Shown: piece after piece, positions 28,677 through 46,764 of the stretch | Layout of the letters: each line of letters begins with the position of its first letter | How positions within the stretch are numbered: position 1 is the first letter of the stretch | Source: Planctomycetia bacterium TMED53 | GTDB lineage: Bacteria > Planctomycetota > UBA8108 > UBA1146 | Assembly: GCA_002167285.1 (NCBI GenBank) | Contig: NHDG01000117.1 | Location: 67,133-131,132, forward strand | DNA: 64,000 nt | Reading direction: 5' to 3' | Notes under the pieces: model-generated | What the model was told of the DNA's origin: nothing | The model's database searches: none | What the model saw: the letters and a program-made list of their open reading frames with translations, nothing else | Program-made: the position numbers and the translations under genes

Positions 28677-31550
28677 GTGTCTGACGAAAATTCTCTCTGG
28701 GATTCCATGGGAAAAGTGGGATTTGAAAGCGGGGCTTCCGAAGCTACCGCGGGGGAAGATCTATCGATTCTCCCTGATCGTCACGATATCGCACATCATC
28801 CCTATCGGGCATTTCTTCATCGATTGGAAAAACCGGGGAGATACACCGGCGGAGAATTACACTCCGTCACAAAAGAGGACGCTCAGTTGTCATTCTTGCT
28901 GGCATTCCCCGACGTTTACGAAATCGGTATGAGCCACCTCGGGTTCAAAATCCTTTACTCGCAATTGAATGGCCTTGAGGGAGTGCGTGCAGAGCGGGTC
29001 TATACGCCGTGGATCGATTGCGAAAAAGAACTGCGCAGCCGCAACCTGGAATTGGTGAGCCTGGAGTCCTGGCGAAGAATGAGGGATTTCGACGTCGTCG
29101 GATTCTCGATGCAGTACGAACTGACCTTCACCAACATTTTGACGATGCTGGACCTGGGGGGGATCCCCATCCGCTCCAGTGACCGCGATGACGACTGCCC
29201 GCTCGTCATGGCCGGAGGGCCTGTGGCGTTCCAGCCGGAACCGATGAGCCCTTTCATCGATGCATTCCTGATCGGTGATGGAGAGGGTCACTTCCACAAG
29301 GTGGTCGACCACTGGAAGTCCCTGAAAGAGCTGGGCGTTCCGAGAAGAGATCGCCTGATTCAGATCAGTGGCTTTGACGGGGTTTACGTTCCCTCTCTCT
29401 ACAGTACTCGGGTGGAAGCGGATACCGGCTTTACAGTCGTCGACGCACCTGTCGATGAACGGGTCCCGGCTTCCGTGAAGCGTGCCCATGTTCCGGATCT
29501 GGCCGAGTATCCGTTCCCTGCCAAGTCTCCGGTCCCCAACACGGAGGTCGTTTTTGACCGTGCCAGCATTGAGGTGGCCCGGGGATGCACAGAGGGGTGC
29601 CGCTTCTGCCAGGCAGGCATGATCTATCGTCCTGTTCGGGAAAGACCCCCCGAGGACATCCAGGAAGTGGTTCGCGATGCGGTCAAATGCGGCGGCTTTG
29701 ACGAGGTCTCTCTCACCAGCCTGTCAACGGCGGACTACAGTGCGATTGAACCGCTGGTGAAAAAAATCATGCCGGAACTGCGCGAGAAGAACATCTCTCT
29801 CAGTGTGTCTTCTCTGCGAGCCTACGGCCTGACCGATGAGATGCTGGAAGAGATGTCCAGTGTTCGGAACACTTCCCTGACCTTTGCTCCTGAAGCAGGA
29901 ACGCAGCGGATGCGGGATGTGGTCAACAAAAACATCACGGAAGAAGACATCGCCAAAAGTGCACACCGGATCTTCTCCAGGGGTTGGCGCCGAATGAAAC
30001 TGTATTTCATGATCGGCCTGCCCACAGAAGATGAAAGTGACGTTCGCGGTATCGCTGACACAGGCAAGCGTATGCTCGACATCGCCCGGGAGTATCTCCC
30101 AAAAGGACGAGCTCAGGTGACCGTCTCCGTTTCAAGCCATGTGCCGAAGCCGTTCACTCCTTTCCAGTGGGCTGCGATGGATGATCTTCCAGATATCGAA
30201 ATGAAGCATGATGCCTTGCGGAAATGGACTCGACATCCGGGCCTTCAGCTTCGCTGGCACGATCCGTCGACGAGTCACCTCGAGGGAATCCTCAGCAGGG
30301 GAGACCGGACCATCTCCAATGTCATCGAAACTGCGTGGCGGAAGGGCTGTCGATTCGACGGCTGGTCCGATCGGATGAGGTTTGATTACTGGATGGAAGC
30401 GATCGAGGAGAATGAGATCGACCGCTACCGTTTCCTCGGCACCATTCCCATCGACGCAAGGCTCCCCTGGGACCACCTCGATTGTGGAGTAGAGCCCAAG
30501 TTCCTCAAGCGCGAGTACCAGAGAGCGCTCAAGGATCGGACTTCCCATCCGTGTGGCAAGCCTGGCAAGAGATTGACCCACTACACCAATGTGGAAGAGG
30601 CGAGTGAAGACAAGCGCAGATTGGTTTGTTACGACTGTGGAATTGAATGTGATCTCAGTCAAATGAAAGAAGAGCGCATCGAGTTCCTCGATTTCCTCGA
30701 GGCCAAAGAGAAAAAAGTGGGCAAGGCTTCTTCACAGACGGATGCCGGTGTGGAACAGGTTCGAGAAGAGGCAAAGAAGCGCTTTGCTGCGCGTGCGAAC
30801 CCTAAAATGCCACCAGAGCGAAAAGAGTTGGATCATGCCAGCCATGGATATCGAATCCGATACGCCAAGCTGGGTCGCGCCCGCTACATGAGCCATTTGG
30901 ATCTGAACCGTTTCCTGCCAAGGGCAATTCGAAGAGCCGGGTTCTCTCCGGCATACTCCAAGGGTTTTCACCCGATTCCCCAAATGTCGTTTGGTCCGCC
31001 GCTGCGTTTGGGAATGGCGGGGCTTTCAGAAGTGGTCGATATTCGATTGCAGGAAGATCTCCCAGCAGAGGTGGTTTTTGAGAAGCTCTCTCAGCAGTGT
31101 CCTGACGGAATCGTCATTCGCTCCTTGCATGCTCTGGGTCCTGATGCTCCGAAGCTTTCCATCGTCAGCAACTGGGCTGACATTCTGATCTTTACACCCA
31201 ACCAAGTCGCCGATCGAATCCCGGGTGAAAAACTTGTCCAATTCCTGGACCGCAAGGAGATTCCGGTCGACAGATTGACCAAAAAAGGCAAGCCGAAGGT
31301 GGTCGATATTCGGCCTGGCATCCAAATCCTTGAATGGCTCGAGGAGGTACCAGCAGATGTGGAAGGCCTTCAATCCTGTCAACCAGAGGAGAGATTGCTG
31401 TCGATGCGGATCTGCTTACAGGGTGACCATCTCACCAAGCCTGAGGATGTATTAGTCCAACTGTTTGACGGAGAGTTACCAGTGGGATTACAGGTTGTTC
31501 GCCGTCGCCTACTGCCGGCTCCCAGTTCAAAAAGTTTTATCAGGGTCTGA
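28677..31550 (+). CDS. B12-binding-domain radical SAM protein fused to a DUF2344-type C-terminal domain (957 aa)
   Basis: Radical SAM motif ARGCTEGCRFCQAG (Cx3Cx2C). The N-terminal domain is B12-binding-like. The C-terminal part YRIRYAKLGRARYMSHLDL...GFHP matches the DUF2344 pattern. Confidence 0.85.
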   Translation: MSDENSLWDSMGKVGFESGASEATAGEDLSILPDRHDIAHHPYRAFLHRLEKPGRYTGGELHSVTKEDAQLSFLLAFPDVYEIGMSHLGFKILYSQLNGLEGVRAERVYTPWIDCEKELRSRNLELVSLESWRRMRDFDVVGFSMQYELTFTNILTMLDLGGIPIRSSDRDDDCPLVMAGGPVAFQPEPMSPFIDAFLIGDGEGHFHKVVDHWKSLKELGVPRRDRLIQISGFDGVYVPSLYSTRVEADTGFTVVDAPVDERVPASVKRAHVPDLAEYPFPAKSPVPNTEVVFDRASIEVARGCTEGCRFCQAGMIYRPVRERPPEDIQEVVRDAVKCGGFDEVSLTSLSTADYSAIEPLVKKIMPELREKNISLSVSSLRAYGLTDEMLEEMSSVRNTSLTFAPEAGTQRMRDVVNKNITEEDIAKSAHRIFSRGWRRMKLYFMIGLPTEDESDVRGIADTGKRMLDIAREYLPKGRAQVTVSVSSHVPKPFTPFQWAAMDDLPDIEMKHDALRKWTRHPGLQLRWHDPSTSHLEGILSRGDRTISNVIETAWRKGCRFDGWSDRMRFDYWMEAIEENEIDRYRFLGTIPIDARLPWDHLDCGVEPKFLKREYQRALKDRTSHPCGKPGKRLTHYTNVEEASEDKRRLVCYDCGIECDLSQMKEERIEFLDFLEAKEKKVGKASSQTDAGVEQVREEAKKRFAARANPKMPPERKELDHASHGYRIRYAKLGRARYMSHLDLNRFLPRAIRRAGFSPAYSKGFHPIPQMSFGPPLRLGMAGLSEVVDIRLQEDLPAEVVFEKLSQQCPDGIVIRSLHALGPDAPKLSIVSNWADILIFTPNQVADRIPGEKLVQFLDRKEIPVDRLTKKGKPKVVDIRPGIQILEWLEEVPADVEGLQSCQPEERLLSMRICLQGDHLTKPEDVLVQLFDGELPVGLQVVRRRLLPAPSSKSFIRV

Positions 31551-31775
31551 TTATATAAAAGCGGCATAGCTGGGTGGTGTGTTTCGGATCAATGGTCTCC
31601 ACCCTCATCCGATCCAATCGAGACCTCCAAATAGGTCCACAAAGTGTTTAAAAATTTGTGGTTCCGATATCGTGGTGCGAAGATCCTAATCTGATTCTTT
31701 CCAACTCCTTAAAAATAAACGTGATGATCCTATGCAAGAGTTCTGGGGGACTTCGAGCATGGGGGAAAAGCACAG

Positions 31776-34148
31776 GTGACGATCAGTCAAGAAATTACTG
31801 CAAATATCGCTTTGGATCGCGCAGTTGCCGCGTTAAAGGCCGCAGGCTGTGATCCCAAAAATGCTGATACTCTTCCATATTGCCATAAAGACCTGACCGC
31901 AGGCTCTGAAATGGAGTTCCAGGTCGCGGTGCTGGGATCATGGAAAAATGTTGATCTTCCACAATCCATATTGGGCAGTGATGATCTTACTGACCAAAAA
32001 AAGCGAGTTGCCCGTGGTGAAAGCTCGAGTACTCGCTTGTCCCAATTGGTGGATTTTCTGAAAAACCCTAAGACTTCAGTTTGGGAAAACTCATGGGTTC
32101 GAATCCCGGTGAAAAAAACTTCCAAATCAGTCAATGAAGAGTTTTTGAATGATATGCATTCGGATCGCTTGGATTCAAACAGTGTATTGAGATCTGATCG
32201 GAACATTTTTGAGTTTGAAAAAGACGGCGAGAAGTGGATACGTGTTCCAGTGTCATACCTTCTCAATCTCGCTCTGGCTTCAATTCAGGGTGAATCAATC
32301 CCACAAGTGGAACAGCTCGCGGAAAAACTCAAGATTCATTTTTTGAATGATAACAACTCGCCAGAATCGACTTCTTTTCATGTAATGAATCCAGGCGAGG
32401 CCAGTGGGCGCGGAATTGAGATCGCCAGGGAAGCCTCATTCAGATTTTTGTTCTCGCAACTTCTTGTTCAGTACGCCAATCAAAAATTTGGTTTGTTGGA
32501 GTCGGGGCAAAAAGTTGAGATTTTTTTCCAGCCTCACCCAGCAGAGAACCAAAAATCTCTTAATCGATTGATTTCAGATAATCAGTATCGGGAGCTTTTC
32601 TGCAGTCCATGTCTGTCGGGTTGGCAAAACGGAGAAAAAAAAGCAGCCTATATGAGGTTGTGTCATGAGGTTCTCAGTCGATCACATCTCAACATTATTC
32701 CAAAAATCAAAGACGCTGGAATTCTGAAAAACAATCTTGTCGTATTGCCGAGCACTTCAAGCACATCCCTTTCAAACAATGGCATCCATTTGACACTGGG
32801 TAGCAAATTGTTAACTGAAATGCGTAGTCAGCAATATTCAGGTTTCGGGGCTGAGGAAGAGAAAAGCCTTGTTGATCTGGTATCAAAAGTCGTTGAGCAT
32901 TTTTTAGGTCTTTTTGTAGGTTATATATCAGCTTCTCCCTACCGCCTGGATTTCAAAGATTTCCATCCTGAAGTCGCCCTGGGGTTTCTTCCTCATCAAT
33001 TGACAGGAAAACACCTGCGGATGATCTGGCGTCGTTGGAGAGTGAAAGCAAAAAACAGGTGCTTGGGAAGGACTATGAAACCGTATGGTCCATATTGGAT
33101 AGACCGGATTCGCCAAATTCTCTTCAGGCTTAAAGGGGACCATGTACCAGACTATCGCTTGATTGATTATCCGATTTCATTTTTGAGTACAGAAAAAAAA
33201 TCGTCACAAAATGGTCTACTGGGAAATCACGACCGATTGAAAAGGGACTTGGAAAGAGAAAGTGTCTTTGATAGTCGGATGTCGATGTATTTGCCATTCA
33301 AGCCGCGCTCATATGATTCTCATGGGTTTGTCGGTATTGAAAGTCGGATTCATTCACTGTTCCCCTCATTCAAGCAAGATTTTGCTCTATGTTCAGACCT
33401 GTTGATTCTGCTGACGGCATTTGCTCACCAGCAGATTATTGCAGGGCGAGTTACCCATGATTCCATCCCTGATGACCCGGACTCAGAGAGTGAGCGAAGG
33501 CAGTTGATTTTCGCCTCAGCGCTGGGATTGCCAACCGCCTTCATAAGGCCTCATGGACCTGATTTGTTCATGGGAAGAGTGTTGGCGTACTGCGATGGTT
33601 CTCGAAGAAGTTATCGATACAAAGGAAAAATACGAGTCTCTGTTCAGGAATATTTAAAAGGCTGTCTGAAGTTGATAAAAGTCTCATCAAGTGAACTGAT
33701 CAGTCACTTGGGAATGTCTGAGACCATTCAGGAAATTGAATCAAGAATTGACTACCCACGAGAAAGGAGTAGTGCCGGAAGAATCACGGGTGCTGTCCTC
33801 GAAAATTTACAAGTTTCTTCTCCGATGAATGTGTGTGCGCAGAAGTTTAATCAGGGGCTCGAAGAGTGGTGTCGTGGTGACCTCCGTAATGATCAGTTGA
33901 AGGAGGCATTTGAGGATTTACGAGCGACCTTGATCAGATTAAAGCCCAATGCGGAATTCCAGTCACAAGTAAGTGAACTTGGAAATATCCAGAACCCGTT
34001 GGGATTTGTAGATGAAGTCCAAGAATCGATCGTTCAGCAGGATTGCAGTGAAGACAGGATCGCAACCTTGATTTCATTGATGATTCTGGTTGAACAGTTT
34101 CTGCAAAAAGAATCTGAGAAGCTTGTTGAGAAGGAAAAAGTATCATGA
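31776..34148 (+). CDS. Hypothetical soluble protein, 790 aa, no recognisable family
   Basis: Uninterrupted 2.37-kb frame in an AT-rich segment. GTG start after GGGGGAAAAG. ATGA overlap with the next gene. No TM, P-loop or Rossmann motif seen. Confidence 0.7.
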   Translation: MTISQEITANIALDRAVAALKAAGCDPKNADTLPYCHKDLTAGSEMEFQVAVLGSWKNVDLPQSILGSDDLTDQKKRVARGESSSTRLSQLVDFLKNPKTSVWENSWVRIPVKKTSKSVNEEFLNDMHSDRLDSNSVLRSDRNIFEFEKDGEKWIRVPVSYLLNLALASIQGESIPQVEQLAEKLKIHFLNDNNSPESTSFHVMNPGEASGRGIEIAREASFRFLFSQLLVQYANQKFGLLESGQKVEIFFQPHPAENQKSLNRLISDNQYRELFCSPCLSGWQNGEKKAAYMRLCHEVLSRSHLNIIPKIKDAGILKNNLVVLPSTSSTSLSNNGIHLTLGSKLLTEMRSQQYSGFGAEEEKSLVDLVSKVVEHFLGLFVGYISASPYRLDFKDFHPEVALGFLPHQLTGKHLRMIWRRWRVKAKNRCLGRTMKPYGPYWIDRIRQILFRLKGDHVPDYRLIDYPISFLSTEKKSSQNGLLGNHDRLKRDLERESVFDSRMSMYLPFKPRSYDSHGFVGIESRIHSLFPSFKQDFALCSDLLILLTAFAHQQIIAGRVTHDSIPDDPDSESERRQLIFASALGLPTAFIRPHGPDLFMGRVLAYCDGSRRSYRYKGKIRVSVQEYLKGCLKLIKVSSSELISHLGMSETIQEIESRIDYPRERSSAGRITGAVLENLQVSSPMNVCAQKFNQGLEEWCRGDLRNDQLKEAFEDLRATLIRLKPNAEFQSQVSELGNIQNPLGFVDEVQESIVQQDCSEDRIATLISLMILVEQFLQKESEKLVEKEKVS

Positions 34149-35149
34149 ATCCGCATCAGTTTGTGTGCAGGGAAGACGGTCAGGTAATCACGGAAGAACT
34201 TTTCGGTGATCAAATCGTTCGCTTTCTCTATAGCGAGGCCAGAGAAAAAGCGCCTGCGTTGTTTCAAATGCTGACTGGAGAGCGGGCTTCTGATCTATTG
34301 GGGCTACTGAATTTTGATTTGCCTTTGAGTGCCACTTTTTCCGGAAGCCAACGTTTCTTGAAAGCTCGAGGAGTGGATCTGGAAGAATCCCTGATCTCAG
34401 CGAACGAGATGAAAACTCCCCGGGATTTCTTCGAGAGGAAGATCTGTTATTGGAAATCTCGTCCGATGCCAGAAGATTCTGAAGTTGTCGTGTCTCCTGC
34501 TGATTCCCGAATGATTGTCGGTGGGCTTTCAGAGGTGAGTTATCTGAAGATCAAAGATAAGTTTTTCAAGCTCAATGAGTTGCTTGGCACTGACCGCACG
34601 GACCTTCATACCATCTTCCATGAAGGAGACTTCGCAATATTCAGGCTGACTCCGGAAATGTACCACTGGAATCATGTGCCAGTATCTGGAGTGGTTAGCG
34701 ATATTTACACTCTTGATGGAGATTATCATTCCTGTAATCCAGGTGCCGTTGTCAAAATGGTCACTCCATATTCAGCCAATCGACGAGTTGTGACGATCAT
34801 CGATACTGACGTACCTCATGGTTCGTGGGTCGGAAGAGTGGCAATGGTCGAAATTGTCGCTTTGATGATCGGCGGGATCGATCAAAGGTATTCACAGCAA
34901 AAATATGACAGTCCTACCGATGTTGTTCCTCGAATGTTTCTGAAAAAGGGGCAACCCAAGAGTTTGTACCGGCCCGGAAGCAGTACAGATGTTTTGATTT
35001 TTGAACCGGGCAGGCTTGAATTTGATCAGGATTTGGTCTCATTTCGCAGCCGTTCAGATGTTCAGAGTCGCTTCAATGCATTTGGTGGCCATCTCAATGA
35101 AACTGAAGTGAAAGTCAGGCAGTCCATCGCACGTAAAATAGGGGGGTAG
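34145..35149 (+). CDS. Phosphatidylserine decarboxylase family (pyruvoyl-dependent) protein
   Basis: FFERKI..W..RP, VVSPADSR, FRLTPEMYHWNHVPVSG, NRRVV, MIGGI, and the putative self-cleavage site YRPG-SSTDVLIFE (34976-34984). Confidence 0.8.
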   Translation: MNPHQFVCREDGQVITEELFGDQIVRFLYSEAREKAPALFQMLTGERASDLLGLLNFDLPLSATFSGSQRFLKARGVDLEESLISANEMKTPRDFFERKICYWKSRPMPEDSEVVVSPADSRMIVGGLSEVSYLKIKDKFFKLNELLGTDRTDLHTIFHEGDFAIFRLTPEMYHWNHVPVSGVVSDIYTLDGDYHSCNPGAVVKMVTPYSANRRVVTIIDTDVPHGSWVGRVAMVEIVALMIGGIDQRYSQQKYDSPTDVVPRMFLKKGQPKSLYRPGSSTDVLIFEPGRLEFDQDLVSFRSRSDVQSRFNAFGGHLNETEVKVRQSIARKIGG

Positions 35150-35157
35150 GGCCGATC

Positions 35158-36210
35158 ATGATGATGTTCCTTACGATTTTAGGCCTTGTAACTCTTGTTC
35201 CTTTGATTCTTGGTATTCGAAAGTTGGCCGGTGATCGCTGGCAAGTTTTAGCCTCTATTCCATTGCATTCCAATCCTGATGGAACCTGGGAGGCGGGTAA
35301 CTTCACCTGGTATGGATTTATCTCAGCTTCTGCTTACGCACTTTCGGTCAGTGTATTATGGATCTTGCTACTGGCTCTTGAATTTCAGTTTTCGGAAGCA
35401 GTGATATTGATTACGGCAGTGATGGCTGTCGTGATTCCTTCTTCAAGAAAAATTGCACAATGGATTGAGGGAAGAAAAAACACATTCAGTATTGGTGCTG
35501 CTGCCTTTGTCGGAATGATTTTGTGTCCTCTCTTGCTTTTTATTGTGAGTCAATTGGAGCTCTATGGCCGTCCATTGCCGATTCTTGAGGCTACCGCAGC
35601 CTTCACTATCGCTTATTCATTCGGTGAAGGTTTGGGGCGATTGGCGTGTATTTCATTTGGCTGTTGTTACGGTAAGCCAGTTGATGAATTAACAGGTATT
35701 GCTCAACGGATCTTTAGGCCATTTAAAATAACCTATAACTCCATGGAAACCCGGAAGGTTCAATATGATTCCGGGTATTCCCAAAGGCCCCTGGTTGCGA
35801 TTCCTGCAATCACCGCTGTGCTATGTACAGTTACTGGACTGATTTCTACGGCGTTGTTTTTATCAGGAAATTTTGTTTTCGCATTGCTGTTGAGTCTTGG
35901 TGTCACTCAGATCTGGAGATTTGGTTCCGAGTTTTTACGTTCGGACTACCGGGGAGATAACAGCATCAGTGCATATCAGTGGATGGCTTTACTGGGATTG
36001 TTCGGCGCTATCGTGTTTGTTTCGTCAGTCTCAACCACAGGAGTTGTTCCTGATCTTGACAATGCGTTGACGATGGTTTGGCAACCGGGTCCGATTCTCG
36101 TTACACAGGGTTTATGGCTCTTCATATTTTTTTTCATGGGTTGGAGTGATGTGACAAGTTCGACGGTCAGTCTTCATCTTTGCAGAAACAAGGTTGAGGA
36201 AGCTGTATGA
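35158..36210 (+). CDS. Lgt (prolipoprotein diacylglyceryl transferase) family membrane protein, paralogue-like
   Basis: At least 7 TMs. GEGLGRLACISFGCCYGKP (35635-35679) resembles the GRxGCxxxGCCYGxP motif of Lgt-family proteins. Later there is FLRSDYRGDN.ISAYQW. Confidence 0.7.
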   Translation: MMMFLTILGLVTLVPLILGIRKLAGDRWQVLASIPLHSNPDGTWEAGNFTWYGFISASAYALSVSVLWILLLALEFQFSEAVILITAVMAVVIPSSRKIAQWIEGRKNTFSIGAAAFVGMILCPLLLFIVSQLELYGRPLPILEATAAFTIAYSFGEGLGRLACISFGCCYGKPVDELTGIAQRIFRPFKITYNSMETRKVQYDSGYSQRPLVAIPAITAVLCTVTGLISTALFLSGNFVFALLLSLGVTQIWRFGSEFLRSDYRGDNSISAYQWMALLGLFGAIVFVSSVSTTGVVPDLDNALTMVWQPGPILVTQGLWLFIFFFMGWSDVTSSTVSLHLCRNKVEEAV

Positions 36211-37642: not shown

Positions 37643-38473
37643 ATGAAAGTAGTCATCGCCCACAGTCCTGACTCTGACGATGCCTTCATGCATTTCGCCA
37701 TTGGCGAAGGCAAAATTGATACGGGTATTTACGAGTTCGATCACATGATGGCCGACATCGAGACCCTGAATCAGCACGCTGTCGAGGGGCGACACGAAGT
37801 GACCGCCATCTCGATCCATGCCTACGCCCATCTCTCCGACCGCTATGCCCTGTTGAACCACGGTGCCAGCATGGGTGAAAACTACGGTCCGGTGATGATT
37901 TCCCGTGAGCCCAAAACCCGTGAAGATCTTGCCGGGGTTCCCATTGCGGTTCCCGGAGACTGGACCAGTGCCACCCTCGCGACCAAGCTCTGGTATCCGG
38001 AGGCGAAAACCGTCTCCGTTGATTTTGACCAGATCATGGAACGGGTCGGCTCCGGAGAATTCGAGGCCGGGGTGATTATTCACGAAGGTCAGGTCACCTA
38101 TCAGGATCAGGGTTATTACCCTGTGGTCGACCTCGGGAAATGGTGGGCTGAAACTCAGGATGGTTTGCCGCTGCCTCTGGGCGGAAATGCAATCCGCAGA
38201 GATCTGGGGGAAGAGCACATTCACGAGATTTCGAGGATTTTGCGTGAGAGCATCGCTTACGCCCTCGATCACCGCGAAGAGGCCCTTTTGTATGCTGAAC
38301 AGTACAACCGGGGTCTGACCCGTGAGCTGACCGACAAATTTGTGGGTATGTACGTCAATCAGCGAACTCTCGACTATGGCGATGATGGGCGCGAGGCCGT
38401 ACGTCGTTTCCTTGATTTGGGAGAAAAAGCGGGAGCTTTTCCGCAGGTCGCTGATCCGGAGTTTATTCGCTGA
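37643..38473 (+). CDS. MqnA/MqnD/SBP-family protein (periplasmic-binding-protein-like fold, menaquinone-futalosine related family)
   Basis: MKVVIAHSPDSDDAFMHFAI...EGRHEVTAISIHAY. GGAGGAG lies upstream of ATG 37643. Confidence 0.65.
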   Translation: MKVVIAHSPDSDDAFMHFAIGEGKIDTGIYEFDHMMADIETLNQHAVEGRHEVTAISIHAYAHLSDRYALLNHGASMGENYGPVMISREPKTREDLAGVPIAVPGDWTSATLATKLWYPEAKTVSVDFDQIMERVGSGEFEAGVIIHEGQVTYQDQGYYPVVDLGKWWAETQDGLPLPLGGNAIRRDLGEEHIHEISRILRESIAYALDHREEALLYAEQYNRGLTRELTDKFVGMYVNQRTLDYGDDGREAVRRFLDLGEKAGAFPQVADPEFIR

Positions 38474-38538: not shown

Positions 38539-39873
38539 ATGGTGGATCAACAACCCCAAAGCTCTTCATCGATTTGGTATGGTTGGGCCCGAACCAGTCG
38601 GGCCAACTCCCAGCTCGTCAACTGCGACGATGTGAACTCTGCCAAAGCCGGAATTCAAGATTCAGCATATTGGTTGCCGAGGGGGGCAGGTTGCAGTTAT
38701 GGCGATGCTGCCCTGAGTGATGGTGGTCGTCTTCTTCGGCCACAATTTCCTTCTGAGATTGTTGCTTCTTCGAATCCAAACTCGGTACGGGTACCCGCTT
38801 CGATGCCATTGGGAGAATTGTTGGCCCGGTTGTCGTTGGAGGAGTTAACCCTACCGGTCGTCCCTGGTGTTTTGGCAGCGACGGTGGGTGGGATGGTTGC
38901 GGCAGATGTCCATGGAAAAAATCACCAGCGATCTGGAAGCTTTGGTAATTGGGTAGAGGCGATTAAATTGATGCCGCCTGACGGGGAATACCGCTGGTGT
39001 ACAAGGGAGAGTGATCGCGAACTCTTTGAAGGAACCATCGGCGGGATGGGACTGACCGGAATCATCCTCGAAATTGATCTCCGTGTCGTCAGGCGTAGTG
39101 ATTCGTTGGCACAGGTTCATGTAGAGGCGACAGATTCGATTGCACAGACTTTAGATCGTTTGGAAAAGTCATCTCGCACTGCCGATCATTCATCCGCATG
39201 GTTAGATCTCGCCCTCAATAGCCCAAGTCTTGGTAGAGGAGTGGTGATCGGCGGCTTTCTCCAATCGGTTGAGAAGGAGACAGTCAGCCAGCTGTGGGAG
39301 CCGAGGTCAGGGCCTGTGTTTCCGCCAATGCCGGTGCCCGGTGAGTCGATGATTCGATTGCATAATAGTTTTTATCACGGCTTTGCACGTCTGCTCCCAG
39401 TTGTTCGACGATGGCCACTTGAGAAGTTGTTGTTTCCGTTGGAAGCCTGGAGGGACTGGAGAAATGTTTACGGGAAATCGGGTTTCTATCAACACCAGTG
39501 CTTGATTCCAGAATCGGTAAGAGTGGCAGGTCTCGAATCGATCTTGAAGATGATCAAGGAATGCCAGATTTCTCCGACGCTGGCGGTATTGAAAATGATG
39601 GGTGAAGGCAATGGCGGTTTGTCTTTCCCTGCCCCAGGAGTCACCCTGTCGCTGGATTTCAGGAATCAAGCGGGGGTTCTCCAACTGTTAAACAATTTGA
39701 ACGCTCTGGTCGCCGAGTTCGGAGGTAGAGTTTATCTCGCCAAGGATTCAACTTTGACCGCGGGATTGTTTCAAAAGATGTATCCTCAGTTGGATCAATT
39801 TTTGGAGTTGCGTCGTCGCATCGATCCAGGCGGGCGAATCAGGTCTGATCTATCAAGCAGGCTGGGAATGTGA
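38539..39873 (+). CDS. FAD-binding (PCMH-type) oxidoreductase, DprE1-like
   Basis: GWARTSRANSQLV...LPRGAGCSYGDAAL, HGKNHQRSGSFG, GGMGLTGIILE, and a C-terminal ALO-like region. The start is uncertain (38479 or 38539). Confidence 0.75.
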   Translation: MVDQQPQSSSSIWYGWARTSRANSQLVNCDDVNSAKAGIQDSAYWLPRGAGCSYGDAALSDGGRLLRPQFPSEIVASSNPNSVRVPASMPLGELLARLSLEELTLPVVPGVLAATVGGMVAADVHGKNHQRSGSFGNWVEAIKLMPPDGEYRWCTRESDRELFEGTIGGMGLTGIILEIDLRVVRRSDSLAQVHVEATDSIAQTLDRLEKSSRTADHSSAWLDLALNSPSLGRGVVIGGFLQSVEKETVSQLWEPRSGPVFPPMPVPGESMIRLHNSFYHGFARLLPVVRRWPLEKLLFPLEAWRDWRNVYGKSGFYQHQCLIPESVRVAGLESILKMIKECQISPTLAVLKMMGEGNGGLSFPAPGVTLSLDFRNQAGVLQLLNNLNALVAEFGGRVYLAKDSTLTAGLFQKMYPQLDQFLELRRRIDPGGRIRSDLSSRLGM

Positions 39874-41718
39874 ATCGATCGCTCCTTGTTGTGATTCAAC
39901 GTAAATCGGCAAGGTGATGGTAAAGGTGGTTCCTTGGCCGTCACGACTCTTTACCTCCACATTGCCGTCATGTTTCAGGCAAACATTTTTGACGATGGCA
40001 AGGCCAAGGCCCGTTCCTCCGATCTCCCGTGAACGTGCCTTGTCTACTCTGAAGAACCGTTCAAAGATTCGATCGAGGAGTTCTTCCGGAATACCGATCC
40101 CGTTGTCGCGAATCTCGATGATGGCCAATTCGTTTTCACTACACAGTGTTGTTTGAATAGTGCCTTCAGCTGGAGTGTACTTGAGACCATTGTCGATCAG
40201 GTTGCCGATAGCCTGGCGCAGATCTTCTTCATTTCCGAATACAAAAATAGGTTCCTTGGGTGCTTCGAATTTAAGCGCGGCTTGATTTTCCGGAGAGGTC
40301 ACCTTTGACAATGAGCTGATGCGCTCATTTATCAGCGAGCCCAGATCAATTTTTACACGGGGTGTCTTTTTCTTCTCATCGAGGCTGGCCAGAGCCAGCA
40401 AATCTGACACGAGGTTCGATAGTCTGTGAGACTGATCCGTAATCTTGGCGGTGAACTTGTGTCGAATCTCTGGATCTATATCTGGATCATCCAACAAGGT
40501 CTCTGCGATTCCGCGGATTGCGGTGATGGGTGTTTTTAACTCATGGGATACGTTTGCAACAAAGTCTCTGCGCATATTTTCGAGTTGGCGGGTCTGAGAT
40601 AAATCATGAAGCACGATCAGGGCGCCAGAGACGTCTTGTCCGTAATCGACTAGCGGACTGGTGTAGGCCTTTAGGAAGATCTCGTTTGGCCCGGTCTCGA
40701 GATCAAGTTCAGCCTCCAGCGGTCTTTGAATGCGAAGGGTGTTGAGAAGCAACTCAGTAATTTCGGTATTATTAACGACGTCAGAGATGTATTGCCCCTT
40801 TGCCTCCCTGATTTCAAGCTTGAGAATCCTGCTCATCACTGAGTTGATGAGCACAATTTTCCCTAAATCATCGATGGCGATGAGACCATCCCGCATCCCT
40901 CCCAAGATGACTCGCATTCGATTGTGCTCGAGGTGGATCTCTGAGACTTGTTCCTGAATCTCATCTGCGAGCTTGTTGAGAGCTTCTCCGAGAAGATCAC
41001 TCTCGACATCCAATCCATTGGGAGCGCGAGCAGAAAAATCACCTTCAGAGTAGGCGACAGCAACTTTGGTAAGAATTTTAAACTGCCTGTTGATCCTTCT
41101 GTAAAGGAGGTGACCCATCACCATTGCCAGCAACGCAGCGATTAACCCCAGCAATAAGACGCTCTCGAAGATAGAGTCAATTTGAGAGATGACCAAACTG
41201 GGGTCTTGTGCAATTCTGAGAAGGTAATTTTTATCATTACCCGCTGAATAGAAGCGCATGATCACTGAAGGAAATTGGTCTCGAGCAGAGCCCAGATTGA
41301 AATTTGCGAGAGCAAATGATCGATCAGATTTAAAAAACTCTGAGAGCTCGGGGTAGAGGGTTTTTGGATTAGTGCTCGTTGAAGGTTTGCTGTTATCTCT
41401 CGATATAAATTCGGTTCCTTCCGAATTCAGCAAATCGATTCGCAGCTGAGGTTTTCGATTATTTTCGATTGTTGCAATGATCGATTTTTCATCGAGCCAG
41501 CTCCATGAGCTTGAGAAGGCTTGCGCTTGCTCAGTCATTCGCTGTTCAAAATTATAAAAAGTATCTTTAGTGAACCTCTCACAGAGAAGGTAACCAAAGA
41601 ACCAGCCTCCAAAGGCAATCAGCACTCCGTAAACAGAGTATACTTGCCAGAAAAAACGGGGCGTTGCGGCATTGGGATCAGTATTTGAAGCGGTATCCGA
41701 CTCCACGCACGGTTTCAA
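39853..41718 (-). CDS. Sensor histidine kinase (2 TM, periplasmic domain, HAMP, PAS, HisKA, HATPase), PhoR-like
   Basis: H-box SHELKTPITAIRG, N-box NLIDNGLKYTP, DNGIGIP, GGTGLGLAIV. TTG/GTG start overlapping the regulator gene. Confidence 0.9.
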   Translation of the reverse strand: MKPCVESDTASNTDPNAATPRFFWQVYSVYGVLIAFGGWFFGYLLCERFTKDTFYNFEQRMTEQAQAFSSSWSWLDEKSIIATIENNRKPQLRIDLLNSEGTEFISRDNSKPSTSTNPKTLYPELSEFFKSDRSFALANFNLGSARDQFPSVIMRFYSAGNDKNYLLRIAQDPSLVISQIDSIFESVLLLGLIAALLAMVMGHLLYRRINRQFKILTKVAVAYSEGDFSARAPNGLDVESDLLGEALNKLADEIQEQVSEIHLEHNRMRVILGGMRDGLIAIDDLGKIVLINSVMSRILKLEIREAKGQYISDVVNNTEITELLLNTLRIQRPLEAELDLETGPNEIFLKAYTSPLVDYGQDVSGALIVLHDLSQTRQLENMRRDFVANVSHELKTPITAIRGIAETLLDDPDIDPEIRHKFTAKITDQSHRLSNLVSDLLALASLDEKKKTPRVKIDLGSLINERISSLSKVTSPENQAALKFEAPKEPIFVFGNEEDLRQAIGNLIDNGLKYTPAEGTIQTTLCSENELAIIEIRDNGIGIPEELLDRIFERFFRVDKARSREIGGTGLGLAIVKNVCLKHDGNVEVKSRDGQGTTFTITLPIYVESQQGAIDSHSQPA

Positions 41719-42373
41719 TCAGGTTGCGATGGGTTTCACCCAACTTCTTACGAATAGATCGAATGTGTACATCCACATTCCTGTCAATCACTACCGTATC
41801 GGATCCTACCACCTTGGAAAGCAGTTGTTCGCGACTGAATACCCTTCCTGGATGGGATGCTAGAAAGTGGAGCATTCGAAACTCTGTTGCTGTCATAGGG
41901 ATAGATTCCCCATCGATAGAAAGATCGTGACGGATATTGTCGAGAACGAAGCCATCCACCGAAATCCTATCCTTGCTTTCGACCGTCTCCTTGAGGGGGG
42001 CTCTGCGCAAAACTGCTTTAACCCTTGCCACTAATTCTTTCGGGCTGAAAGGCTTACTGACGTAATCATCTGCTCCAACACCGAGGCCGAGAACGACATC
42101 GCTCTCTTCAGTTTTTGCAGTGATCATGATGACTGGGATGTCCCGGGTGACGGGGTCTTCCTTAACCTTTTTACAAATTTCGAGGCCGTCGATTCCTGGT
42201 AGCATCAAATCAAGTAGGACTAAATGGGGGTGATCTTCTCGAATCGCCTCAAGGCCCCTCTCCCCGTCTCGATAACCTCTGACGTTGTAGCCCTCGCGGG
42301 AAAGGTTGTATTCGATGACGTCTAAAATATCGGCTTCATCTTCAACGATGATGATATTTGCCTTTTTGCTCAA
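41678..42373 (-). CDS. OmpR/PhoB-family response regulator
   Basis: IIIVEDE, LVLLDLMLPGIDG, TRDIPVIMITA, KPFSPKELVARVKAVLRR, wHTH TVRGVGYRF. Confidence 0.95.
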   Translation of the reverse strand: MSKKANIIIVEDEADILDVIEYNLSREGYNVRGYRDGERGLEAIREDHPHLVLLDLMLPGIDGLEICKKVKEDPVTRDIPVIMITAKTEESDVVLGLGVGADDYVSKPFSPKELVARVKAVLRRAPLKETVESKDRISVDGFVLDNIRHDLSIDGESIPMTATEFRMLHFLASHPGRVFSREQLLSKVVGSDTVVIDRNVDVHIRSIRKKLGETHRNLIETVRGVGYRFKY

Positions 42374-42420: not shown

Positions 42421-43302
42421 CTAAAACCTGAAAGTCACGCCCAACTCAATATTATGAATTTCAAAATCAAGATCCAAGAGTTCCCCGCCCGCGCGGCGAT
42501 CGAACTCAAGGTTTTTTCGGGACAGCGTTAAGTGGGAAGTCCAATCGGTTGAAGGGCTCCACTCGAAAGCTGCTCCGATATCCCTATATACTGGGGTTTG
42601 CGACCCGGTAATTGAAACCAATGATTTTGTAAAGAATAGCTGAAGATTCCATGTTTTCTTCATGCGCCAGTCCAGAAGCACGCCGGTGAATGGAATGTGA
42701 TCCAAGTCTTCCAGCTTTAACACCGACAGGGGGTTGTCCGTTGACTGTGCGGAGAACTCATAATCGACAAAATCGAGCCCAGCCAACCAATGAATCTTCG
42801 GTGAGCGCAGTTCCGATAATAACTCAAGGGGTAGGTCCTGCATGATCCTCGTTGAAGTGAAGCTGTTATCAAAACGATAGTCACCGGCTGGAAAGCTCAA
42901 ACTTCCGGCGGTCGCTTCGAAGGGCGCTACCGATCGTGAATGACTATGAATTTGATTCAGTGACCACTTCATAGGGCCTTGCCTCAAAGTGATTCCTGGC
43001 CGGTAGTTGAAGTCTGCCTGGTCGAGCTGCACTTCATCGAAGTTGACCAGGGATACACTGCCATTGGAGGTTTTTAACCCTCCGGAAACGGAGACCCGAT
43101 GGATGGAGTGGCTGCTCTCAAATGACAATTGACTGACTTGACGTTGGGTCATAGTGCAGCCTGAAGTGAACAGCAGAAGAAGCGTTCCCAGTGTCCAGAA
43201 TTGAAATGAGAGCTTAGAGCTGAACTCAAGAATGGGTCCAGAAAAGGGCCCAGTAGTTGGAGCTCTCAATGAACTTCTGATAGGGGACCTTGGAAACTTC
43301 AT
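42421..43302 (-). CDS. Hypothetical outer-membrane beta-barrel-like lipoprotein
   Basis: Signal with lipobox FTSGC. Alternating beta-strand pattern. C-terminal ...ELGVTFRF ends in an aromatic residue, typical of OMPs. Confidence 0.5.
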   Translation of the reverse strand: MKFPRSPIRSSLRAPTTGPFSGPILEFSSKLSFQFWTLGTLLLLFTSGCTMTQRQVSQLSFESSHSIHRVSVSGGLKTSNGSVSLVNFDEVQLDQADFNYRPGITLRQGPMKWSLNQIHSHSRSVAPFEATAGSLSFPAGDYRFDNSFTSTRIMQDLPLELLSELRSPKIHWLAGLDFVDYEFSAQSTDNPLSVLKLEDLDHIPFTGVLLDWRMKKTWNLQLFFTKSLVSITGSQTPVYRDIGAAFEWSPSTDWTSHLTLSRKNLEFDRRAGGELLDLDFEIHNIELGVTFRF

Positions 43303-43441: not shown

Positions 43442-46400
43442 ATGTCGAAACCGCCATCTTTGAAACACTTTTTGGCGATTCTGCTATTGGGTTTATTGGC
43501 CCCAGTCATCACCTCCGAATGGTACTCACCACTGATAGGACTCTCCGCAGGTGAGCCACTTGTCAGGGATGATTCTACTGAGACGCAAATCAAACAAAGA
43601 TACTTCGAAAATCGCGTGCGACCTCTGTTGGAGGAGCGTTGTATTCGTTGTCACGGTCCAGCCATCGGCAAGCAGGAATCGGGCCTCGATCTTTCTCACC
43701 GTGAGGGACTTCTCAAGGGAGGAAGACGCGGAGCTGCGGTGTTACCCGGGAAGCCAGACGAGAGCTTGCTGATTCAGATGATCGAGGGGCATGTCTCCGG
43801 TCTATCGATGCCTCCTGACGATCCCCTCTCCGCTGAAGAAAGAAAAATTCTAAGAAAATGGATCGAGGATGGGCTGGTCGATCCAAGGTTGGCGACGGAC
43901 TCCCATGCTGGCGGTGGAATAGACGGTATTCCCCCTATGGAGAAACGGGGGGATCATTGGTCCTTCCAGCCATTGACTGACCCCGTCGTTCCAAAAGTCG
44001 GAAACCCACAGCAGATTCGCCAGGCGCTGGATGCTTTCATCCTATCTACATTGGAGGAGAAAGGTTGGGGATTTGCTCCCGAAGCAGATCTCTTTACCAG
44101 AGCGAAGCGAGCATCTCATTTGTTGACAGGCTTGCCACTCGATTGGGATCGGTGGCAAATTTTGCTCTCACAAAACGACGAAGAGGCCTTCGACGAATTC
44201 ATCGAAGAACTCCTTGAGTCCGATGCTTTTGGTGAACGCTGGGCACGTTGGTGGCTCGATTTGGCAAGGTATTCAGACTCAAACGGACTCGATGAGAATC
44301 TAGCTTTTGGCGAAGCGTGGAGATACCGGGACTACGTCATTCGCTCATTCAATCAAGATAAGCCTTACGACCGTTTTCTTCTCGAGCAGTTGGCTGGTGA
44401 TTTGCTTCCGGAGCCCACTTCAGAGCAGGAATGGCGAGATCAGAGAATCGCAACAGGGTTTCTTGCGCTCGGCCCAAAGATGCTGGCTGAGCAAGACAAA
44501 GACAAACTCGCTATCGACGTGGTGGATGAGCAATTGGATGTGACTGGCCAAGTATTCATGGGTATGACCATCGGTTGTGCACGTTGTCATGATCACAAAT
44601 TTGATCCAGTCACCGCTCGCGATTACTACGCCATGGCTGGGATTTTTCGTTCGACGAGCAGTTTTGAAAATCTCGACTTTGTTTCACGTTGGCGGGAGGT
44701 CTCTCTTGAAACTCCAAATGAGAAGAAGGTCCGTGAAGATTGGGAGCAGAGACGTTCACAGGTAGAAGATCGGCGAAATAAAAATCTAGATGTCGTCAAA
44801 AAAGATTTTGAAAAAGATCTGATTTCGAAACTCGACAAGCAGTTGGTGGAAGCTGTCGAGTGGGCTTCAGTGATTCCTGGTAAGACTGTGGTTGAAAACT
44901 CTTCGATGTCATTGGGGCTCAATCGAAGCATGTATGGGAATGAAGCGATTCCACTTGCTCATACTGTTCAAGGCGGTGAGCAACAGGTGACTTGGGACTT
45001 GGAGGTTCTTCAAGAAGGGCTTCATGAGATTCAGGTCCGCTACACCGCTCTAGAGTCTCGACCTATGAAGTTGTACCTCAATGGTGAAGTTTTGGTCGAG
45101 GCGGCACTTGGCGAGACAACAGGTACCTGGGGCCTCGAAGGGTTACGTTGGCAATCCGTCGGAAGCTTCGAGTTCAAAGCGGGTGTGCAACAGTTCAAGT
45201 TGGTCGGTGGTAGCGCAGTTCCTCATCTCGATCGCATTCGATTGCTTCCAAAGAAGGAGCCGGATGCTCAAGACTGGGAGCAGGGAGTTCTCGCTTGGGT
45301 CGATTATTTACAACGGCCTTCGACTCTCGAAGATCCTTTGTGGGGGGCATGGGCTCATCGTGCTCTCAAAAGAAGCTCAGAGCCGGTCCATCGGCAACAA
45401 GAAGATTTCCTCGGTTCTGATCGGCGTCAGCATTTGGCCCCAGAGGTACTTCAGATCCTTGGTGAATCCATCGGTGGGACTCTCGGAGAAATCTCCTCAT
45501 TGTGGAAGACTCTCCTGATCCGCGCCGAAGAGGGGGGCGATTCTAAAGCTTTGGTGGAAGTTCTTAACAAGGTCAGGGGAGTTTCAGGTCCTTGGTATGA
45601 AATCCTCGAAAACTCAGCACAGCATGCTCCTCCACAGTTAAGAGTGGAGTTGGATAACGATCAGAAAAAGTTGCAAGAGTTGGATCAAATCAAGCCACAA
45701 GAAGCTCCGCGGACTCTAGGTGTTCAGGATTCCGATGCGGTGAATTTGCCGATTCACATCCGAGGCAGCCATCTGCGATTGGAGAAGGAGCCGACTCCCC
45801 GCGGTGTCATGTCGGTGATCGCGAACAACTTTTCTCCTCCTAGCATTCCTGACGATTCAAGTGGGCGATTGGAGTTTGCGCAATGGCTGCTACATCCGGA
45901 GCATCCATTGACGGCAAGGGTCATCGTGAATCGTGTTTGGCTTGAACTGTTTGGTGAAGGCCTCGTCAGTTCGCCATCTAATTTTGGCTTACGGGGAGAC
46001 AGTCCCAGTCATCCAGAGTTGCTCGACCGATTGGCTCGAGACTTCATCGCTGATGGTTGGTCCATCAAAAGGTTGATTCGGAAAATCCTCGATAGCACTG
46101 CCTGGCGTCAGCAGGTGGTGAGTCGGCCGGAGTACATGCTCGAGGATCCAGAAAATCGATTGTTGTGGAGTCAGAATCGGCAGCGCCTGAGGGCAGAGGC
46201 GGTCAGGGATTCAGTTTTACAAGTGAGTGGGCAACTGGATAGGAAGATGGGCGGGACGCTGCTGATGACCCCTAATCGGGGGTACGTCACCAATGATCAG
46301 TCGAATAATCAAGCTCGGTACGACCTGCCCCGTCGATCGATCTACCTTCCGGTGATTCGCAATGCGATGTACGAGTTGTTCAGCGCCTTCGACTACAATG

Positions 46401-46738: not shown

Positions 46739-46764
46739 GGCAGCAATATGATGAAGGCGGCAAT

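Follow-up and report, generated by a model that had tools for sequence, protein, structure and literature searches.

Known remodelling of bacterial membranes under phosphate starvation proceeds through PlcP-Agt glycolipids, the BtaAB betaine lipid DGTS and the OlsBA or OlsF ornithine lipids. The locus described here lies in a 64,000-nucleotide stretch of contig NHDG01000117.1 from Planctomycetia bacterium TMED53, hereafter called the window. It consists of three consecutive genes, hereafter the trio, which encode a ligase-like protein of 790 amino acids (gene 1), a protein similar to phosphatidylserine decarboxylase (PSD; gene 2) and a membrane protein similar to the prolipoprotein diacylglyceryl transferase Lgt (gene 3). 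The block is a horizontally inserted copy of a conserved operon, and the most likely function of this operon is to build or alter the polar head of a membrane lipid based on diacylglycerol when phosphate is in short supply. Judged from gene content and predicted protein function, there is about an even chance that the operon serves lipid remodelling in phosphate starvation and builds an amino-acid-derived diacylglyceryl lipid, probably free of phosphorus. The initial annotation of the window had noted that no characterised pathway is known to combine PSD and Lgt activities with a large soluble protein of unknown function, and no publication on this combination was found in the full-text literature, subscription literature being outside the scope of the search.

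A conserved three-gene unit and its insertion in the window

Gene 1 was found in at least 576 of 185,579 species genomes by a pattern scan with one genome per species. The carriers are mostly Desulfobacterota (Geobacterales, Syntrophales, Desulfobacterales and Desulfobulbales); the others are Nitrospirota (Nitrospira), Nitrospinota, Planctomycetota including the anammox genus Brocadia, Acidobacteriota and one gammaproteobacterium. The comparison of gene order covered 68 non-redundant loci in which the sequence continues for 3 kb or more beyond gene 1. In 65 of these 68 loci gene 1 is followed immediately by the PSD-like gene, usually with an overlap. An Lgt-like gene occurs in 63 of them, and in 59 it comes right behind the PSD-like gene. 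The co-occurrence in 59 to 65 of the 68 complete loci shows the trio to be a single conserved unit across several phyla, as expected if the three genes form the module proposed in the initial annotation.

Some clusters contain further genes. In Trichlorobacter and Syntrophorhabdus, additional genes lie between the PSD-like and Lgt-like genes, the Trichlorobacter order being ligase, PSD-like, a 735-amino-acid protein, a family 4 glycosyltransferase (GT4), Lgt-like and DUF2062. The 735-amino-acid protein of Trichlorobacter thiogenes (L067:11277-13484, + strand) has no Pfam or NCBIfam hit and could be an additional member of the pathway in this genus; the spacing from the PSD-like to the Lgt-like gene and the position of the GT4 gene are the same in loci L036 and L081 as in L067. 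A DksA/TraR-type zinc-finger protein of 144 amino acids is encoded between the PSD-like and Lgt-like genes at L083:3611-4045 (+ strand) and in 11 other loci, mostly from Syntrophales, which suggests a tie to the control of transcription in the stringent response or under stress. In Geomesophilobacter sediminis (L001/L012:4226-7385, + strand) the ligase-PSD pair is preceded by genes for an alpha/beta-hydrolase-like protein, a GH3-family acyl-acid amido synthetase and a DUF2062 protein, the GH3-family gene encoding a second amide-forming enzyme of that cluster.

The positions of the trio and of the neighbouring features in the window are given in Table 1. The tight co-directional packing reported in the initial annotation was confirmed by the open reading frames (ORFs) and by the junction sequences, with ATGA stop/start overlaps between genes 1 and 2 at 34145-34148 and between gene 3 and the following IMPase-family gene at 36207-36210. 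The spacing between genes 2 and 3 is also real, but the gap of 9 nt assigned to it is a coordinate difference and the true gap is 8 nt, between the TAG of gene 2 and the ATG of gene 3. No terminator-like site was found inside the operon, and the + strand of the leader gave no match to a sigma-70-like promoter.

Table 1 Positions in the window of the trio, its borders and the nearby two-component genes
Feature	Position	Strand	Evidence
Gene 1, 790 aa, GTG start	31776-34148	+	ORF
Gene 2, 334 aa, PSD-like	34145-35149	+	ORF, PF02666
Gene 3, 350 aa, Lgt-like	35158-36210	+	ORF, PF01790
IMPase-family (HisN-like) gene, 299 aa	36207-37106	+	PF00459, E = 1e-33
Operon leader, 225 nt, intergenic; left edge of inserted DNA	31551-31775	+	Read from sequence
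Radical SAM gene, resident left flank	28677-31550	+	TIGR03960-family B12-binding radical SAM with TIGR03936/DUF2344 domain
PhoR/PnpS-like histidine kinase	39853-41718	-	Best NCBIfam matches PnpS, PhoR TIGR02966
PhoB-like response regulator	41678-42373	-	Best NCBIfam match PhoB TIGR02154

The sharp drop in G+C content (GC) that had been noticed in single lines of the sequence was seen both in 1-kb windows and in the z-scores of individual genes. GC is 0.43-0.46 over 32-36 kb and about 0.51-0.57 in the rest of the window. The three lowest GC values among the 47 ORF-defined genes of the window belong to the trio (0.438, 0.467 and 0.444; z = -4.5, -3.1 and -4.2), as do the three lowest values of GC at third codon positions (GC3; z = -3.3, -2.4 and -3.5). 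The radical SAM gene (0.547) and the IMPase gene (0.529) have normal GC. The trio is not AT-rich relative to its flanks in general, since the median difference in 60 other genomes is +0.016 and only the lineage of the window shows a difference of -0.09.

A site without the trio was found in a relative. The contig with the nearest non-identical IMPase homologue (51% identity; locus L089) has the gene order LolD, LolCE, GDH, RnpA, YidD-like, MerR-like, radical SAM, IMPase, MqnA-like and FAD protein; the ten flanking genes are collinear with those of the window at 44-84% amino acid identity, the radical SAM proteins sharing 73%. In the relative the stop codon of the radical SAM gene and the start codon of the IMPase gene are 38 nt apart, and the contig has no match to any of the three trio genes. 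Because of the foreign composition of the block and the collinear site without it, the approximately 4.6 kb at 31551-36206 is an insertion between the resident radical SAM and IMPase genes. The horizontal acquisition beside a resident IMPase/HisN-like gene that the initial annotation had proposed is thus well founded. The insertion is recent and its donor had a lower GC, but the donor cannot be named because the best non-self homologues are only 46-48% identical. The window itself is from a marine Planctomycetota lineage, and the same block, with 97% protein identity, is present on a contig of the metagenome-assembled genome (MAG) MCMED-G47. The IMPase gene, the protein of which has HisN as its top NCBIfam match (175 bits against a cutoff of 275), adjoins the trio only in the window and in locus L006 in the gene-neighbourhood comparison; it stands outside the conserved trio and is the resident right border.

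As had been reported for the borders, no integrase-like gene was seen among the neighbours of the block and no convincing flanking repeats were found there, nor is there a tRNA gene anywhere in the 64 kb. Plasmid-borne mobility was rejected, as a plasmid search gave no match, and so was an anti-phage defence system, as there was no PADLOC hit.

Other observations concern the surroundings of the block. The leader holds a perfect 7-bp inverted repeat, CCACAAA-N11-TTTGTGG, at 31638-31662, and at 38330-38347 the end of the MqnA-like gene contains a related palindrome, ACAAATTTGT(GG); both may be binding sites of a regulator. The radical SAM protein is a 957-amino-acid fusion (TIGR03960 plus TIGR03936/DUF2344), which also occurs in the relative with the uninterrupted site. 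The PhoR-like/PhoB-like gene pair has slightly low GC (0.47-0.48, z = -2.9 and -2.3) and nearly normal GC3. Directly after the PhoB-like gene is a 293-amino-acid ORF (42421-43302, - strand) without Pfam or NCBIfam match, and 43442-48180 (+ strand) encodes a planctomycete PSCyt1-PSCyt2-PSD1 (DUF1549/DUF1553) protein of 1098 amino acids followed by a DUF1501 protein, a gene pair that confirms the assignment of the window to the Planctomycetota. The window also encodes LolCDE.

The three encoded proteins

Gene 1 had been described as encoding an orphan protein. It has instead at least 1899 homologues at E ≤ 1e-3, with about 42-48% identity over nearly the full length, none of them named and none with a Pfam domain, and its predicted fold is like that of glutamate-cysteine ligase. 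No Pfam or NCBIfam model matched the protein, Pfam even at E ≤ 10 across 43 members of the family, and phmmer and profile searches of the sequences in the Protein Data Bank (PDB) gave nothing meaningful. A search of 1.84 billion representative sequences with the family profile returned only 886 hits, mostly fragments, with no tail of remote homologues. As judged by these searches, the family is isolated, large and well conserved. Its alignment has approximately 110 invariant columns, as expected of an enzyme.

Structure prediction gave a fold where the sequence searches had given none. The AlphaFold2 (AF2) model built from 43 sequences had a pLDDT of 84.9 and a pTM of 0.90, and the five best Foldseek matches in the PDB were GshF, E. 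coli GshA, Francisella GshA and two PafA chains (3ln7, 1v4g, 3nzt and twice 4bjr), with Dop and type III glutamine synthetase (7oyh and 3o6x) lower in the list. All meaningful hits are members of the carboxylate-amine ligase superfamily; the best has E = 3.5e-3 and probability 1.00, and TM-scores are 0.27-0.44, so that the E-values are weak. The order of four invariant motifs of the family is that of the catalytic residues in E. coli GshA: G-S-E45-x-E47 (G-L-E27-R-E29 in GshA), E104 (E67), G-T-H338-I-S-L-G-S (G-V-H150-Y-N-F-S) and E522-x-R524 (E328-V-R330). They were matched by inspection and lie on or beside predicted beta-strands of the model. An hhalign comparison of the family profile with E. 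coli GshA gave a probability of 0.2, that is, no profile similarity.

From the fold and the motif inspection, gene 1 is predicted probably to encode an active ATP-dependent amide-forming ligase of a new family. The protein resembles GshA/GshF, glutamine synthetase and PafA/Dop in its predicted fold and, by inspection, in its ordered motifs, glutamate-cysteine ligase being the closest structural match, but similarity to the superfamily in sequence or profile is undetectable. It is approximately 270 residues longer than GshA, with a big insertion between the second and third motifs and a long C-terminal helical domain.

Gene 2 matches the PS_Dcarbxylase family PF02666 with E = 4e-36 (124.9 bits, gathering score 22) and aligns to E. 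coli PSD (7cnw) with E = 2e-11. All eight PSD/ASD models of NCBIfam are under their cutoffs, the top one, NF001941, with 137.5 bits against 371. When 76 orthologues were aligned with E. coli PSD, D120, H174 and H177, equivalent to D90, H144 and H147 of the E. coli enzyme, were present in all 76. The G-S-(S)-T self-cleavage site, G278-S-S-T281 in gene 2, is nearly invariant (G278 and S280 in 75, T281 in 74 of the 76). The full set of PSD motifs that had been read from the sequence is therefore borne out by the PF02666 match and by catalytic residues conserved in 74-76 of 76 orthologues. Of the residues in contact with the acyl chain, F41 and F67 are kept, and L13 and L18 of the first amphipathic helix are replaced by polar or small residues. 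Arg167 occupies the phosphate-binding position in all 76 orthologues. In E. coli PSD this position is Tyr137, which hydrogen-bonds the lipid phosphate; across the family 85% of the members have Tyr there and 15% have Arg (PMC7952604).

On this sequence evidence gene 2 encodes an intact pyruvoyl-dependent decarboxylase of the PSD family, of the long form and not an equivalog of a named PSD. It has the Asp-His-Ser autoprocessing residues, the cleavage site and the His144 equivalent in common with E. coli PSD (7CNW-7CNZ), its acyl-chain surface is partly kept, and the Arg at the Tyr137 site is a variant known in the family. The gene differs from psd in being coupled translationally to the 800-amino-acid ligase gene rather than associated with pssA. 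The enzyme would probably act on a lipid-bound alpha-amino acid with an anionic group nearby.

Gene 3 matches the LGT family PF01790 with E = 7e-7 and 29.2 bits (gathering score 24.9), the match spanning positions 11-238 of the 240 in the model, and most members of the Lgt-like family have a precomputed PF01790 hit. The score to the Lgt equivalog NF000778 is 28.4 bits against a cutoff of 334. In the AF2 model (pLDDT 92.9) there are approximately nine transmembrane (TM) helices, in agreement with the minimum of seven given in the initial annotation, and Foldseek gave a single meaningful hit, E. coli Lgt (5azb; probability 1.00, TM-scores 0.42/0.50), the next hits being unrelated. Y52, R161, G172, R254, E258 and R261 are invariant in 37 members. 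They were equated by a three-way MAFFT alignment (hhalign against E. coli Lgt covered the signature region only) with Y26, R143, G154, R239, E243 and R246, which line the phosphatidylglycerol (PG)/diacylglycerol (DAG) site of E. coli Lgt (PMC4728403). Three other positions are changed relative to E. coli Lgt: H103 to V118, N146 to C164 and E151 to C169. H103 is part of the HGGL motif, is essential in E. coli Lgt, and the motif has been proposed as the site of the lipobox peptide (PMC4728403).

A Lgt of canonical length is encoded 3 kb upstream of the trio on a Candidatus Brocadia contig (L008:4136-5005, - strand; 290 amino acids, 107 bits to E. coli Lgt). The Lgt-like gene of the trio is therefore a second copy in Brocadia, and at least in this organism it is not the only lgt. 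The canonical protein has GRIGCFLNGCCFG and YYGG in place of GRLGNFINGELWG and HGG, so that N146, E151 and H103, which are reported to be important in E. coli, are not universal among presumably functional Lgts. The changes N146C and E151C, being common to this protein, are not diagnostic by themselves and do not exclude Lgt activity. The assignment of gene 3 to the Lgt family thus holds by PF01790 and by fold, but the GRxxCxxxGCCYG motif on which it had been based is not special to gene 3. For the same reason the triple-Cys motif (C164, C169 and C170) was dropped as a hallmark of a new, perhaps Zn-thiolate, activity.

The distribution of charged residues sets gene 3 apart from canonical Lgts. 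E. coli Lgt has seven TM helices with the N-terminus outside and a periplasm-facing active site, and obeys the positive-inside rule (PMC4728403). The loops on its active-site side contain 5 Lys and Arg residues and those on the other side 13; the corresponding numbers for the Brocadia canonical Lgt are 10 and 17. In the Lgt-like family the means for 37 members are 17.1 (range 12-23) on the active-site side and 1.6 (range 0-4) on the other, and the bias is reversed in all 37. From the reversed loop charges and the positive-inside rule, gene 3 is predicted to be inverted in the membrane relative to Lgt, with active site and head domain toward the cytoplasm. The proteins of genes 1 and 2 have no Pfam-detectable export or membrane domain and, from reading of their N-termini, no signal peptide; the ligase and the decarboxylase are therefore expected to be cytoplasmic. 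In comparison with Lgt (5AZB), gene 3 belongs to the same superfamily by Pfam and fold and keeps the donor-site residues, but it falls approximately 300 bits under the equivalog cutoff, has an extra TM helix at each end, has Val in place of H103, lacks the K/R-rich cytoplasmic loops of canonical Lgts and is always linked to the ligase and decarboxylase genes.

These properties bear on two other explanations of the operon. Genes 2 and 3 could be a plain housekeeping psd for phosphatidylethanolamine (PE) synthesis and a plain lgt for lipoprotein maturation beside an unknown gene; source annotations do label gene 3 as prolipoprotein diacylglyceryl transferase, both proteins score above the Pfam thresholds, and the presence of LolCDE implies that the organism makes lipoproteins. 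Such an explanation is exceedingly unlikely, given the scores far under the NCBIfam equivalog cutoffs (for Lgt 28 bits, cutoff 334; for PSD 137 bits, cutoff 371), the recent insertion of a block missing from a related genome, the strict co-inheritance of the trio by a small minority of the species (at least 576 of 185,579 genomes), the separate canonical Lgt on the same Brocadia contig, and a loop charge bias opposite to that of functional Lgt. Alternatively, the operon could lipidate a protein or peptide at the cytoplasmic face, the diacylglyceryl group being placed on a Cys and the ligase and decarboxylase preparing or tagging the substrate. The only known substrates of Lgt are peptide cysteines (PMC4728403), the protein-modifying ligases PafA and Dop are among the fold matches of gene 1, and the active site of gene 3 is predicted to face the cytoplasm. 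We nevertheless consider protein lipidation quite unlikely: no conserved small ORF or substrate gene accompanies the trio, the recurrent extra genes being those for regulators, GT4, DUF2062 and pst/pho proteins; the HGGL motif, the proposed lipobox binder, is not kept (H103 to V); and the free alpha-amino acid that a PSD-family enzyme requires is an unusual feature of a protein.

Phosphate and lipid genes beside the operon, and the proposed chemistry

All ORFs of 82 loci were clustered by BLAST, and neighbours were counted within 8 kb of the trio. Apart from the trio and its overprinted frames, recurrent neighbours are a PhoB-like regulator (best NCBIfam match PhoB, 266-275 bits), a PhoR/PnpS-like kinase, PstS, PstC/A and PhoU, and further an EAL-CBS-GGDEF protein, a GT4 of approximately 800 amino acids and a DUF2062 membrane protein encoded directly after the Lgt-like gene. 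Only PhoU and PstS/C/A were counted as specific phosphate (Pho) markers. A neighbour cluster initially labelled PstB was rejected as a marker since it was mixed with other ABC ATPases, its member in the window being LolD. PhoU or PstS/C/A genes were found in about 20 of the 82 loci, in varied arrangements; a random gene would be expected to have such a neighbour at a rate, by rough estimate, of well under 1%. With PhoB- and PhoR-like genes included, 39 of the 82 loci have a Pho-like gene. In locus L047 the genes pstS-pstC-pstA-pstB-phoU are directly downstream of the trio, and in L071, from an acidobacterium, pstS-pstC-pstA-pstB-pstB are directly upstream, in both cases on the same strand; except for the two L071 PstB copies, the pst/pho proteins of these loci score above the NCBIfam cutoffs. 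In many loci the operon directly adjoins PhoB- and PhoR-like genes. In the window these genes are 3.6 kb downstream on the opposite strand, with scores all just under cutoff (PnpS 366, PhoR TIGR02966 297 and PhoB TIGR02154 266 bits). A direct repeat resembling TGTCA-N6-TGTCA is 6.7-fold enriched upstream of gene 1, in a few independent lineages and not in the window.

Lipid genes also recur near the trio. The GT4 gene occurs in 17 loci, and lies within the trio cluster in Trichlorobacter; the best NCBIfam matches of the protein include GlcNAc-PG synthase and MGlcDAG synthase, below cutoff. The Syntrophorhabdus locus has a HAD-family phosphatase gene between its PSD-like and Lgt-like genes (L013:3901-5319, + strand), and a two-domain gene of Acyltransf_2 and Acetyltransf_5 lies just downstream on the same strand (L013:7370-9214, +), a combination which we take to be the architecture of the ornithine-lipid synthase OlsF. 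Genes for DedA/VTT proteins and PHO4 transporters adjoin the trio in other loci.

The neighbourhood also bears on whether the product is a lipid at all. The operon could make a soluble amide (a thiol, or a polyamine-like or beta-alanyl/GABA-type compound) with gene 3 as exporter or anchor: the ligase and PSD-like genes are the part of the operon that varies least (65 of 68 loci) and stand without an Lgt-like gene in Geomesophilobacter, the GT4 is weakly similar to BshA and MshA, which make low-molecular-weight thiols, and PSD-family enzymes can act on non-lipid amino acids, as PsiD does. There is only a small chance that a soluble product is right, given the invariant equivalents of the DAG/PG-site residues R143, R239, E243 and Y26 in the Lgt-like protein, the hydrophobic acyl-chain-contact positions kept in the PSD-like protein and the lipid genes that recur nearby.

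For a lipid made in phosphate limitation, the enzymes could act as follows. Under phosphate limitation the inverted Lgt-like enzyme would take the diacylglyceryl group from PG in the inner leaflet and pass it to a cytoplasmic nucleophile, most plausibly a thiol, as Lgt chemistry favours a thiolate; the cleavage of PG would free glycerol phosphate, from which phosphorus could be recovered. The ligase would make or extend an amino-acid head group by an amide bond, an acceptor of the gamma-glutamyl-cysteine type being the simplest guess. The PSD-like enzyme would decarboxylate the lipid-bound head group at the alpha position, next to its free amine, and the net charge would change from anionic to zwitterionic. 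In a concrete version that uses each enzyme once, Glu and Cys would give gamma-Glu-Cys, DAG transfer would give S-diacylglyceryl-gamma-Glu-Cys, an anionic and PG-like lipid, and removal of the alpha-carboxylate of Glu would give a zwitterionic, PE-like lipid. The Cys carboxylate could then be the anion seen by the invariant Arg of the PSD-like protein. For the chemistry suggested in the initial annotation, S-diacylglyceryl transfer to a Cys compound and then decarboxylation, the points in favour are the Pho neighbourhoods, a ligase fold closest to that of GshA and the predicted cytoplasm-facing site of the Lgt-like protein; the point against a charge-free thioether substrate is that the PSD-like protein has Arg invariantly where phosphate is bound. 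In its full form, with a GshA-like ligase, an inverted Lgt using PG as donor and a PSD-like step producing a new phosphorus-free S-diacylglyceryl (thioether) amino lipid in phosphate starvation, the thioether proposal is tentative and by itself unlikely to be correct in every part.

Several observations weigh against phosphate-starvation remodelling with an amino-acid-derived lipid as the function of the operon. For the invariant Arg, a phosphate-bearing substrate such as phosphatidylserine (PS) is no less suitable than one free of phosphorus. The link to phosphate is one of gene neighbourhood, many of the loci are interrelated, the copy in the window was inserted beside unrelated resident genes, and the enrichment of the Pho-box-like repeat comes from only few independent lineages. 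Inverted topology is a prediction from charge bias, and the ligase assignment combines weak Foldseek E-values (3.5e-3 and worse) and motif inspection with a null profile comparison with GshA. The cultured Geomesophilobacter has ligase and PSD-like genes and no Lgt-like gene within 8 kb, and in three loci from uncultured Deltaproteobacteria and Syntrophus MAG contigs (L023, L027 and L033) gene 1 stands without both partners within 8 kb. An EAL-CBS-GGDEF gene and phoB/phoR/phoU/pst genes adjoin these lone copies, and the ligase may have a role of its own.

Some of the same evidence could be read as the modification of a phosphorus-containing phospholipid. Gene 2 would then be a true decarboxylase of PS or a PS-like lipid, the ligase would aminoacylate a PS/PE-type head (giving, for example, a lipid of the N-aminoacyl-PE type) or use its carboxylate, and the Lgt-like enzyme would redistribute diacylglyceryl groups, with a product that alters membrane charge under stress and does not save phosphorus. 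Arg at the Tyr137 position in 76 of 76 orthologues, a residue found there in about 15% of the PSD family (PMC7952604), would suit such a substrate, as would the complete PSD catalytic set and the partly hydrophobic acyl-chain surface, and the DksA-like and EAL-CBS-GGDEF neighbours point to stress and second-messenger signalling besides the Pho genes. However, there would be little physiological point in making extra phospholipid beside pstSCAB-phoU and phoBR, the head group that Lgt chemistry expels is the one with the phosphate (PMC4728403), and the other lipid genes of the clusters (GT4 and OlsF-like) make phosphorus-free lipids; we consider modification of a phospholipid rather unlikely.

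Significance and comparison with known lipid remodelling

There is a real chance that the trio is a stress-induced pathway for a membrane lipid head group whose product and inverted Lgt are categorically new. If the operon makes a replacement lipid in phosphate stress, bacteria which drive nitrification, anammox, iron and sulfate reduction and syntrophy would gain a new route of lipid synthesis and probably a lipid class new to them, and some of the unidentified phosphorus-free lipids from anoxic environments could be accounted for. In the full thioether version, hundreds of environmentally important bacteria, among them Nitrospira, Planctomycetota with the anammox bacteria, Desulfobacterota such as Geobacter and Syntrophus, and Acidobacteriota, would answer phosphate starvation with an undescribed class of phosphorus-free lipid. 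Gene 3 would be the first enzyme of the Lgt fold shown to act on anything but exported lipoproteins, and no earlier one has been predicted to face the cytoplasm, which would bear on the evolution of a family of antibiotic targets, and a function would be given to a large conserved family without Pfam or NCBIfam model. Whatever the chemistry, the annotations of gene 3 as prolipoprotein diacylglyceryl transferase and of gene 2 as phosphatidylserine decarboxylase are probably misleading in genomes with the trio.

The trio has in common with PlcP-Agt, BtaAB and OlsBA/OlsF the association with genes of the Pho regulon, and Agt-like GT4 and OlsF-like genes are co-located with it; the expected outcome, replacement of phospholipid by an amino-acid-derived lipid, is also alike. 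None of its enzymes, however, is homologous to PlcP, Agt, BtaA/B or OlsA/B. We know of no membrane lipid class with the thioether or amine link of the predicted route. In that route DAG would come straight from PG by an alkyl transfer of the Lgt type, whereas in the known route it is released by a phospholipase C.

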